From the IMG/VR virus record IMGVR_UViG_2541047120_000012: a stretch of 10,911 nucleotides of DNA. One strand, 5' to 3'. The first letter of the stretch is position 1. Each line of letters starts with the position of its first letter. Positions 1,380-2,450 of this stretch are shown here, one piece after another. Source of the stretch: a virus. Lineage: Duplodnaviria > Heunggongvirae > Uroviricota > Caudoviricetes. The notes beneath the pieces are model-generated. The model was given only the letters and a program-made list of their open reading frames with translations, did no database searches and had not been told where the DNA came from. The position numbers and the translations under genes are program-made.

Positions 1380-2030
1380 TTACAAATTAAAAAACGCCCT
1401 AGAAATGACACCGCCTACCAAAACCCCTACGCAGATAAAGAATATTATTTCTTTTGGATAAAGTCGGATTAATTCTGAAGCACGAAGTCGGACTTCTGGT
1501 AAGGTCGAACTCTCTATGTGGCTTGATGCCGATTGTTGCTCTAACCACGACAATGCAGACTGTAACTGAGAACGAGTAAGATCGTTTAAACGTCCTGTAC
1601 CGAAATTGATATGGCAATACCGCAGAAGTTTTTGTCGAAGTCCACAGTCTTCACTGTTACGTAGTAATAAACTTACAAGAGCCTTACAGGCATCATGATC
1701 TTTACATCGCTCAAGCATTGCATGCAGAAAACTCTCCGCTGTTTTATATTGATTTACTGTCATATCATCAATACCAGCTACACCAATCTCCGCATGTACT
1801 TTTTGCCAAATAATAAACGCTTCAGTATTGCTAGCTTCTGCAATAGCAGCAACCAAGCTATTTAGCTCCTTACGCTGAGCCTTAAGCAAAGGGCGATCGT
1901 CATCATCATTATTCGAAGGGATTGCGATATTGACGGTATGAGAACCATCATATCGCTCTATCTGAATATTCTTTTCGTGAAAATCACGCCCAGCAACGCG
2001 ATTGTTTGAACCGTTTGAGTTGACGGCCAT
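1380..2030 (-). CDS. Hypothetical tail-anchored membrane protein, 216 aa (disordered N-terminus with DDDD tract, central helical domain, single C-terminal TM helix IIFFICVGVLVGGVISRAFF)
   Basis: Long ORF with strong RBS (GGAGGTGAC then ATG), 15 nt after the repressor stop. Hydrophobic C-terminal stretch; N-terminal motif NGSNNRVAGRDFHE resembles the repressor C-terminus. No family recognised. Confidence 0.6.
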   Translation of the reverse strand: MAVNSNGSNNRVAGRDFHEKNIQIERYDGSHTVNIAIPSNNDDDDRPLLKAQRKELNSLVAAIAEASNTEAFIIWQKVHAEIGVAGIDDMTVNQYKTAESFLHAMLERCKDHDACKALVSLLLRNSEDCGLRQKLLRYCHINFGTGRLNDLTRSQLQSALSWLEQQSASSHIESSTLPEVRLRASELIRLYPKEIIFFICVGVLVGGVISRAFFNL

Positions 2031-2045
2031 GTCACCTCCCTACTA

Positions 2046-2450
2046 TCACCTACCCTTAGTTTCGTTATAGTCACGACCAGCGATACGGTTATTACCACCA
2101 GAAATATTTAACTCACGTCCTGATGGCTGAGTTTCCTTTTCACTGATCGCACCTTTTAAAGCCCCAATCACCGCGTTTTTCACATCTAACGAAGCTGCTC
2201 GAAAGCGAGTAATCAATTCCTGCTCATCATCGTTATAAGTTTCAGGTGAGTGAATTCCCAACACAACATACTGAACATCAAGGCCAAAACGAGACAGCGC
2301 TGCCAAATACGCAGCATCAGGAAAGCTATCTCCTTTCTCATATCTAAGCTGAGTTAGCTTTTTGACTCCACCAATGTCGCTCATGGCAACTTGACTAAGT
2401 CCCAATCTTTCCCTTTCCTCACGCAACCGCCGACCAATATCATTTTTCAT
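2046..2450 (-). CDS. XRE/Cro-C1-family HTH transcriptional repressor (putative prophage immunity repressor C), 134 aa
   Basis: N-terminal helix-turn-helix signature (RLREERERLGLSQVAMSDIGGVKKLTQLRYEKGDSFP). Divergent from the rightward early operon across an operator-like palindrome; the position matches P2 C relative to cox and int. Confidence 0.8.
   Translation of the reverse strand: MKNDIGRRLREERERLGLSQVAMSDIGGVKKLTQLRYEKGDSFPDAAYLAALSRFGLDVQYVVLGIHSPETYNDDEQELITRFRAASLDVKNAVIGALKGAISEKETQPSGRELNISGGNNRIAGRDYNETKGR

Follow-up and report, generated by a model that had tools for sequence, protein, structure and literature searches.

A co-varying peptide motif shared by a prophage immunity repressor and its mostly membrane-anchored neighbour in P2-like and Mu-like elements

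We analysed a 10,911-nucleotide stretch of viral DNA (hereafter the window; IMG/VR record IMGVR_UViG_2541047120_000012, Caudoviricetes), in which a gene for a helix-turn-helix (HTH) repressor is followed on the same strand by a gene for a predicted membrane protein, here called the partner. The C-terminal tail of the repressor and the N-terminus of the partner carry the same short peptide, and this sharing is real, statistically well founded and widespread. The repressor ends ...ELNISGGNNRIAGRDYNETKGR and the partner begins MAVNSNGSNNRVAGRDFHEKNIQ. When the two copies, NISGGNNRIAGRDYNE and NSNGSNNRVAGRDFHE, are aligned, 10 of 16 residues are identical and two more differ only by I/V and Y/F, while 29 of the 48 underlying bases are the same and different codons are used at 6 of the 10 identical residues. 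An earlier reading of the window from its letters and ORFs (the sequence-only reading) had reported 10 identical and 2 conservative positions over 16, with different codons at six of the ten, and these figures were reproduced exactly. The local alignment score of the pair is 62, compared with 28.9 +/- 4.7 in 5000 shuffles of the partner, none of which reach 62 (maximum 57). Adjacent same-strand open reading frame (ORF) pairs in the loci that we fetched (n = 1237 distinct pairs) have a mean score of 20.4 with a standard deviation of 5.9; the best unrelated pair scores 50, and the control pairs at or above 54 were all further repressor/partner pairs that had slipped through the filter. Comparable matches between unrelated neighbours, which the sequence-only reading had named as a result that would speak against it, were thus not seen. 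A search for a third motif copy found none, either in the window or across the whole of the O157 prophage (loci L001 plus L162), where the best other score, 48, belongs to a low-complexity tail-fibre stretch. Third matches in other loci are due to chance, except at locus L053 (4411..5625, plus strand), a Cellvibrio metagenome-assembled genome with two consecutive partner genes, which start QHFHQPVGVVAGRDV and TQEFNGNVGQVAGGNIYN downstream of a repressor with TQKFHGPVGQVSEGD.

We collected loci around repressor homologues, 80 of them genomic (one genome per species) and 80 from viral contigs, in each of them set the repressor tail against the beginning of the following gene, and clustered the results into 23 independent motif lineages. 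All 120 of the 120 listed partner homologues contain N[RK]x[AS]G[R]D[FYL] in their first 25 residues, and all 120 follow the start pattern M.VNS.G..NR.[AS]GRD[FY].E..[IV].I..[FY]DG..T[IV]NIAIPS. On the repressor side, [AS]G[RG]D[FYLM] lies within the last 22 residues in 50 of 117 full-length homologues; 35 of the remaining 67 have other tails rich in G, N, Q and V, and such tails are found in the more distant homologues. The repressor tail pattern [IV]N[VI]SG.[GS]NR[VI]AGRD[YF][NH]E.KK occurs in Escherichia, Klebsiella, Salmonella, Yersinia, Serratia, Dickeya, Erwinia and others, likewise at 50 of the 117 full-length sequences. Across lineages that range from Enterobacterales to Pseudomonas, Bordetella, Gilliamella and Thiothrix the motif becomes wholly different, yet it stays matched within each pair (Table 1). 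The mean score of cognate tails and heads is 47.9, compared with 24.7 +/- 9.5 for non-cognate pairs that also bear motifs; the cognate head ranks first in 13 of the 23 lineages and among the top five in all 23, and the observed cognate mean was reached in none of 200,000 label permutations. At most loci, too, no other segment in the six frames of that locus gives a match as good as the cognate one. The sequence-only reading had proposed a search of homologous operons for co-conservation and co-variation as its check, and the outcome is strongly positive. Its claim that the peptide is kept in both proteins is borne out by the conservation among homologues and by the lineage-matched motifs.

Table 1. 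Repressor and partner termini in individual motif lineages.
Lineage	Repressor tail	Partner N-terminus
Pectobacterium	QIFNGDISGQFAGNQIIN	head QEFNGTAQGQFSSRDIIN
Pectobacterium	QIFNGDISGQFAGNQIINNG	start MRQEFNGTAQGQFSSRDIINI
Gilliamella	NTIRGEGQIAGGNIYTT	start DNTAEQIAGRDIYNIT
Bordetella	QVFHGQVGQ	head QIFRGQVGQVTAGDIVN
Bordetella	KQVFHGQVGQYV	start ETQIFRGQVGQVTAGDIVNF
Pseudomonas	QIFHGPVGQAVEGGVTN	head QEFRGHVGQVAAGDIQN
Pseudomonas	KQIFHGPVGQAVEGGVTN	start SQEFRGHVGQVAAGDIQN
Pseudomonas	QQFNGPVGSVATGDVVNH	start QQFHERVDQVAAGDIKNF
Jeongeupia	GNAQIGQASAGDIVN	head GGAQIDQAAAGDINN
Jeongeupia	GNAQIGQASAGDIVNKNGKKK	start GGAQIDQAAAGDINNYYG
Thiothrix	VIHGEVGQSFGD	head VEIQGDVGQVFAGD
Thiothrix	VVIHGEVGQSFGDAAT	start VEIQGDVGQVFAGDIGQV
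Oleiphilus	NGDGNRVAGRDYHG	start VSGNNNVVSGRDLYQYY

The similarity resides in the peptide. Over the 23 lineages, the same codon is used at 104 of 221 identical aligned residues, against 99.5 expected under independent codon choice with the usage of each gene pair. These counts indicate that selection acts on the peptide and not on the DNA, gene conversion and recent duplication being excluded because codon sharing is at chance. A DNA-level repeat, an operator or gene conversion had been considered as the source of the similarity and was rejected on the same codon result and on the lack of any DNA repeat in 1940..2140 at a seed of 7; the view of the sequence-only reading that the copies are not a recent DNA duplication stands.

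The association also holds when it is approached from the partner. A reciprocal search with a degenerate DNA pattern for the partner signature PLVPAQRKxLN, which belongs to its Flk_N domain, found a repressor with a matching tail upstream of the partner in 22 of 22 assessable cases, one of them with an inserted moron gene. At locus L172 (1561..3097, minus strand), a 135-residue gene product with a signal-peptide-like start is encoded between repressor and partner, and the pair tolerates this splitting by a moron. The two copies are also absent together: a motif-free repressor homologue (P0219, from a 186-like E. coli prophage) is followed by genes that likewise have no motif, and repressor paralogues without such tails adjoin a response-regulator gene.

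The motif is modular with respect to the proteins that carry it. Partner bodies comprise several unrelated architectures, mostly membrane-anchored: tail-anchored Flk_N proteins; two membrane segments, either in a small protein or together with a zinc ribbon; one membrane segment combined with a long coiled coil and a Cys-containing periplasmic domain; and a few soluble proteins (at loci L054, L056 and L067, without a membrane segment). A Pfam search of the partner types other than Flk_N recognised no family. A single motif class occurs on differing partner bodies, among them Flk_N and the zinc ribbon with two membrane segments, and the Flk_N body occurs with differing motif classes, always matching the neighbouring repressor. 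In the coiled-coil partners at loci L018, L131, L145 and L011, which have no Pfam match, the motif is joined by the long coiled coil, a CxTC segment, a single membrane helix and, in the periplasm, a domain of about 60 residues with conserved Cys (C.F.G.PY..GS); this group looks like a periplasm-facing sensor version. In a Salmonella enterica locus (L189, 1794..4185, contig DBKMCB010000005.1), four tandem repressor paralogues accompany a single Flk_N partner. Three of these paralogues, all upstream of the partner, differ in the HTH and have the same helical region and NVSG..NRVAGRDYNEK tail, and the fourth, which adjoins the partner, has a degenerate tail. The module is found in P2-like prophages and in Mu-like elements; in Pectobacterium and Bordetella the repressor is divergent from an rve transposase and a DUF3102 gene, a Mu-like layout.

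Composition and gene layout are distinctive as well. The motif segments contain more N (3.8-fold), G (2.6-fold), V (1.7-fold), Q (1.55-fold) and I (1.1-fold) than the remainder of the same proteins, and less L (a ratio of 0.11), P (0.39) and K (0.49). The aligned motif has a median length of 18 residues (range 9-25), starts at a median of partner residue 3 and ends at a median of 6 residues before the repressor C-terminus. The two genes are collinear with a median gap of 4 nucleotides; the gap is at most 10 nucleotides in 14 of the 23 pairs, and the genes overlap in 7. Both motif regions are highly conserved, yet AlphaFold2 (AF2) models give them a predicted local distance difference test score (pLDDT) below 50.

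These properties recall amyloid signalling motifs, which, at about 25 residues, are found C-terminally in an effector and N-terminally in the receptor that the neighbouring gene encodes; in the bacterial (BASS) and fungal motifs Q, N, G, V and I are enriched and K, P and L depleted, and 57% of BASS gene pairs have gaps of at most 10 bp and 42% overlap (bioRxiv 10.1101/2020.01.06.895854). In E. coli, the adjacent gene products of the abortive-infection pair Bab/Agp signal through a shared amyloid motif of about 20 residues (bioRxiv 10.1101/2024.11.07.622273). As in fungal HET-s/NWD2 (HRAM), the BASS1-10 Bell/NLR pairs and Bab/Agp (BASS11), the motif of the prophage module joins the C-terminus of an upstream product to the N-terminus of a downstream one across collinear, nearly abutting genes. 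The length is similar (a median of 18 residues, against about 20-25 in those pairs), the bias in composition is shared, and in both cases the motif diverges between lineages, remains matched within each pair and is combined with various domains. The proteins themselves differ. The one with the C-terminal motif is here an XRE-type DNA-binding repressor and not a death effector (HeLo, Bell, TIR, CHAT), and those with the N-terminal motif are small, mostly membrane-anchored proteins and not NLR/STAND or TPR sensors (NB-ARC or NACHT NLRs, or TPR-GreA/B-C-PIN as in Agp); they show neither NTPase nor repeat domains of the kind found in oligomerising sensors. The setting differs too, being P2-like and Mu-like immunity regions in Proteobacteria and not defence islands of multicellular bacteria, and no fused, all-in-one form was found among 90 family representatives. 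The module may thus work like an amyloid signalling pair, a likeness in mode of action and not in family membership.

The HTH gene is a prophage switch or immunity-type repressor gene, with DNA binding and immunity as predicted functions; we identify it as such because the divergent early region, with its Arc-like and Cox-like genes, faces it. With an integrase gene downstream, its position is that of the P2 C repressor. The AF2 model, built from family alignments, shows an XRE/Cro-C1 HTH (residues 5-64), two further helices (residues 74-102) and a flexible C-terminal tail, which from about residue 101 to 134 has a pLDDT of 43-49. Pfam matches to HTH_31, HTH_19 and HTH_3 are all under the curated cut-offs; transcriptional regulator and repressor families of PHROG match, a PDB profile search matches P22 C2 (E-value 9e-6), and a weak match to the NCBIfam RstR family (E-value 6e-6) is well under its cut-off. 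PADLOC gives weak HTH matches only. No match to Peptidase_S24, the domain of LexA/CI-type self-cleavage, was found, and the C-terminal half of the protein consists of the two helices and the low-confidence tail. Repressor tails are basic at their ends, with an average of 3.2 K/R in the last 8 residues; this basic end could serve as a gatekeeper against aggregation, contact the membrane or DNA, or mark the protein for a protease.

The partner in the window is a predicted tail-anchored protein. Its N-terminal region contains the invariant columns M1, G7, N10, R11, D16, E19, I24, D28, T32, N34 and P38, and hydrophobic C-termini are kept across its homologues. NCBIfam Flk (PRK10715) gives a partial match between partner residues 37-166 and Flk positions 20-149 of 339 (E-value 8e-16); the score of 58.2 bits, against a family cut-off of 353, does not amount to full-length membership. 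Both a Flk_N domain and a C-terminal membrane anchor are nevertheless present, as judged from precomputed Pfam PF27202 (Flk_N) assignments on homologues and from the AF2 helices. The full length of the partner is matched by phrog_5825, a family of unknown function, and part of it by PHROG 6521, 'membrane protein, moron'; a PHROG match to Ant is weak (E-value 0.0045). A PDB search with the predicted fold gave no significant match (best E-value 1.0). Weak resemblance to the phage regulators ORF6C, Bro-N and KilA-N (viral models, best E-value 0.02) is a lead only. The PADLOC defence library gave no match to the partner, and no toxin family was matched in PADLOC, Pfam or NCBIfam. In Salmonella and E. 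coli, Flk (RflH, 'Fluke') is tail-anchored and regulates the flagellar type III secretion switch (PMC13344023). Like Flk, the partner has the Flk_N domain, a cytoplasmic body and a single C-terminal membrane anchor; unlike Flk, it is about 120 residues shorter, prophage-borne and equipped with an N-terminal motif, which true Flk proteins (with MQPxSG... starts) do not have. Its current annotation is 'hypothetical protein' or, misleadingly, 'flagella biosynthesis regulator'.

On balance, the sequences favour a co-evolving interaction motif that ties the immunity repressor to its mostly membrane-anchored partner through a putative direct contact. The shared peptide would be a protein-protein interaction element, with one copy on the flexible C-terminal tail of the repressor and the other on the flexible cytoplasmic N-terminus of a partner that is translated from the shared mRNA and in most cases held in the inner membrane; in the window this partner is a tail-anchored Flk_N protein. 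The two copies would pair like with like through beta-strand contacts, which would couple the repressor physically to a membrane-located partner; by tethering the repressor or driving its assembly, the partner would set the pool of free, active repressor. Such an arrangement would give P2-like and Mu-like prophages, whose repressors of this type have no LexA-type cleavage domain, a membrane-linked input into the lysis-lysogeny switch. That the two motifs bind each other directly is likely, and we favour pairing of like with like because the co-variation is lineage-specific, the motif is independent of its scaffold, AF2 confidence is low, and both composition and gene layout fit. Less can be said for the parts that lie further along: inactivation of the repressor or induction, as opposed to stabilisation or immunity, is a tentative choice of outcome, and a cross-beta or amyloid-like form of the contact, suggested by the analogy with amyloid motifs, is more doubtful still.

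Several observations weigh against this interaction model. For the Lysobacter repressors L029 and L031 and the Ralstonia repressor L034, whose tails are G/N/Q-rich and end in basic residues, no partner with a matching N-terminus was detected within 4 kb, so the tail must have a role of its own within the repressor, for example in self-association. Fine-scale co-variation within the AGRD class, which counts in favour of the model, is only suggestive: at the two hydrophobic positions, the V/I/A before AG matches between partners in 11 cases against 6.7 expected (p 0.03) and the Y/F after GRD in 15 against 8.8 (p 0.002), both uncorrected for kinship, and the polar positions show no excess matching. 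In a parallel in-register assembly, residues of like charge would be stacked at the conserved R and D of the AGRD class, and it is not evident that this would be favoured. The partner is neither an NLR nor another known oligomerising sensor, and the repressor is no death effector, so the analogy with amyloid signalling rests on layout and composition. Finally, one operon in the lysogen makes both proteins, and a constitutive interaction would therefore need an extra trigger.

A bolder version of the interaction model is prion-like control of the switch in a large group of P2-like and Mu-like prophages, in which a membrane sensor would nucleate a cross-beta fold in its N-terminal motif on an envelope or infection cue and template the matching motif of the repressor tail into an inactive assembly, with prophage induction as the result. 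It appears unlikely, though it would be consequential: if true, it would be the first amyloid signalling pathway with transcription and not cell death as its output, and phages generally held to be non-inducible would have a route of induction independent of SOS.

Instead of pairing with each other, the two motifs might compete for one docking site, either on a third phage protein or, more plausibly, on the repressor core (HTH plus helices 74-102), for instance where repressors oligomerise; the partner would then act from the membrane as a built-in antirepressor or buffer, displacing the tail of the repressor from that site. The repressor core is constant and partner bodies vary, so any fixed docking site would be on the repressor, and the orphan tails described above show a tail role intrinsic to the repressor. 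Antirepressors that bind repressors are well known, among them Tum, Ant and RstC; the last, from the Vibrio satellite phage RS1, makes RstR aggregate and so inactivates it (cited in PMC3121763). However, AF2 leaves the tail undocked from the core, and the motif diverges wholly while the core stays 40-60% identical, so a docking site would need to change far faster than the rest. Self-pairing beta motifs, unlike helix-groove ligands, typically have such a composition, with much G, N, Q and V and little L, P or K, and the prophage yielded no third protein that bears the motif or obviously co-varies. We consider competitive mimicry of this kind rather improbable. The partner as proposed here would still resemble RstC, its nearest precedent on the repressor side, and Tum (186), Ant (P22) and epsilon (P4) as a small phage protein acting on an immunity repressor without RecA cleavage. 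It differs from these antirepressors, which have separately controlled promoters and no motif in common with their targets, in being co-transcribed with the repressor and not expressed separately from it, in being membrane-anchored and in carrying the motif of the repressor tail.

An HTH protein with a disordered C-terminal tail encoded first and a small membrane protein second is an arrangement like that of type II toxin-antitoxin operons. The repressor tail could accordingly restrain a harmful or phage-excluding membrane effector, which loss or titration of the repressor would free, leading to addiction, abortive infection or superinfection exclusion. Genes between a prophage repressor and the integrase are often morons or exclusion genes, as the partial match to PHROG 6521 recalls, and the motif shared by Bab and Agp has a membrane-targeting death effector under its control. 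The lack of any PADLOC match or Pfam/NCBIfam toxin family for the partner speaks against an effector, as do the partners without a membrane segment and the origin of the Flk_N domain in a regulator, Flk, and not in a pore former. A toxin-antitoxin or exclusion module would also leave the presence of the same motif on both proteins unexplained, and its probability is low.

The sequence-only reading had linked the two proteins through a common or mutual binding partner or through a shared degron or protease site. The functional link itself is supported by the co-variation, and among the binding options it is mutual binding that we infer; the degron is disfavoured. A host protease or chaperone (e.g. 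ClpXP, Lon or FtsH) that recognised the motif would co-regulate the turnover of both proteins. The terminal position and disorder of the motif are typical of degrons, repressor ends are basic and some of the loci are Mu-like; MuA has a basic C-terminal ClpX tag, and the Mu repressor is under ClpXP control. A site read by the host should, however, be kept among phages of related hosts, and the motif is instead AGRD in Escherichia and Klebsiella and FNGDISGQFAGN in Pectobacterium, matched only within each gene pair, while the basic end lies outside the shared segment and is absent from the partner. We favour mutual binding with a repressor-controlling membrane protein over a shared host protease site because the co-variation is lineage-specific, and regard the degron or chaperone tag as very improbable. 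Chance similarity, or a recent local duplication or gene conversion without function, might be suggested by copies only 87 nucleotides apart and by the ease with which G/N-rich low-complexity peptides match, but is already refuted by the shuffles and the unrelated adjacent pairs, which never score this high, by the codon counts and the lack of a DNA repeat, and by retention of the motif in every partner homologue examined.

Holding a soluble DNA-binding regulator at the inner membrane has precedents in bacteria, since transcription factors are sequestered there in cases such as Mlc by PtsG, or PutA. The proposed role of the partner would resemble these. In those cases folded domains make the contact with transporters or enzymes, whereas here it would be made by a terminal peptide present on both the regulator and its anchor.

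The features of the repressor/partner region are listed in Table 2. Bases 1003-2520 of the window, which is part of a P2-like prophage of E. coli O157:H7, are 100% identical in many O157 chromosomes, and the module is found in 521 of 5426 complete E. coli genomes. The prophage copy in NZ_AP018488 adjoins yecA and encodes an integrase, P2-family capsid, portal, terminase and tail genes, and ogr. The partner ATG lies 15 nucleotides past the repressor stop codon and has its own Shine-Dalgarno sequence; no promoter-like or terminator-like site was found between the two genes, and no terminator-like site in 900..2800. A read-through fusion of repressor and partner was considered, the two being in the same frame, and rejected on account of the intervening TGA TAG TAG.

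Table 2. Features of the repressor/partner region and its neighbours in the window.
Feature	Coordinates	Strand	Basis or remark
Integrase gene, cut by insertion sequence (IS) element	383..997	minus	end of leftward (lysogenic) string 383..1350
DUF2511 gene	1003..1350	minus	rest of leftward (lysogenic) string 383..1350
Partner gene, annotated 'hypothetical protein'	1380..2030	minus	216 residues; ORF list
C-terminal transmembrane anchor, partner residues 183-215 (predicted)	1386..1484	minus	single long AF2 helix
Flk_N-like helical cytoplasmic domain, partner residues 46-172 (predicted)	1515..1895	minus	helices pLDDT 81-90 (AF2)
Partner N-terminal region, residues 1-45	1896..2030	minus	most conserved part, yet pLDDT 42-48
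Partner motif copy, residues 4-19, NSNGSNNRVAGRDFHE	2021..1974	minus	sequence comparison
Gene junction	2031..2048	minus	TGA TAG TAG (three in-frame stops), GGAGGT Shine-Dalgarno, GAC, then ATG
Repressor gene	2046..2450	minus	134 residues; ORF list, HTH matches, PHROG
Repressor C-terminal tail, residues 104-134	2049..2141	minus	low AF2 confidence; motif and basic end TKGR
Repressor motif copy, residues 115-130, NISGGNNRIAGRDYNE	2108..2061	minus	sequence comparison
Divergent early region	2460..2952	plus	promoter-like site, Arc-like gene and Cox-like gene
Promoter-like site	2460..2488	plus	part of divergent early region
Arc-like gene	2526..2732	plus	PHROG Arc-like repressor, E-value 4e-27; 68 residues
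Cox-like gene	2749..2952	plus	PHROG Cox-like excisionase/repressor, E-value 1e-27

Other features of the prophage are recorded here as observations. The Arc-like ORF sits between the repressor and the Cox-like gene, where RefSeq instead calls a 45-residue hypothetical protein on the opposite strand. Fragments of an IS3-family transposase at 9..380 (plus) and 10467..10902 (minus) bracket the prophage segment in inverted orientation. The integrase ORF encodes 204 residues here, compared with 333 in NZ_AP018488, and the prophage copy in the window is probably immobile because its integrase is cut. A 76-residue gene product in the early operon (5595..5825, plus), called 'derepression protein' by RefSeq, could be a second, conventional route that acts on the repressors of co-resident prophages. 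Genes for a ParM-type segregation ATPase (9169..10128, plus) and a plasmid partition/stability protein (10133..10447, plus) lie inside this P2-like prophage and adjoin the gene for a 940-residue replication endonuclease (6270..9092). Outside the window, in the part of the O157 prophage covered by L162, genes for a macro-domain protein (14227..15129, plus) and a serine O-acetyltransferase (15760..16332, minus) are found among the tail-fibre genes, and the tape-measure gene is broken by IS1203.

A literature search, with most subscription journals outside its coverage, found no description of the repressor/partner motif pairing. Among cultured phages, relatives are limited to Escherichia phage 520873 and three weak Ralstonia phage matches, so that no studied model phage was found for the module. 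The finding is best classed as the principle of a shared terminal motif on adjacent gene products now applied to a lysogeny switch, with a pairing that is new in the literature searched.

Prophages of the P2 and Mu types abound in Enterobacterales, Pseudomonas and their relatives, and little is understood of what switches those of their repressors that belong to the present kind, without a RecA-cleavable domain. The co-evolution of one peptide in such a repressor and in a membrane protein from the same mRNA suggests a direct route, open to testing, by which the cell envelope could act on the genetic switch, and it would extend the shared-motif arrangement from pairs of immune receptors and death effectors to the control of transcription. 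The many natural motif classes, each matched within its pair, are ready-made orthogonal interaction tags and swaps. Even if the partner is merely a membrane tether or a built-in antirepressor, the module remains an unannotated and widespread component of prophage immunity regions.

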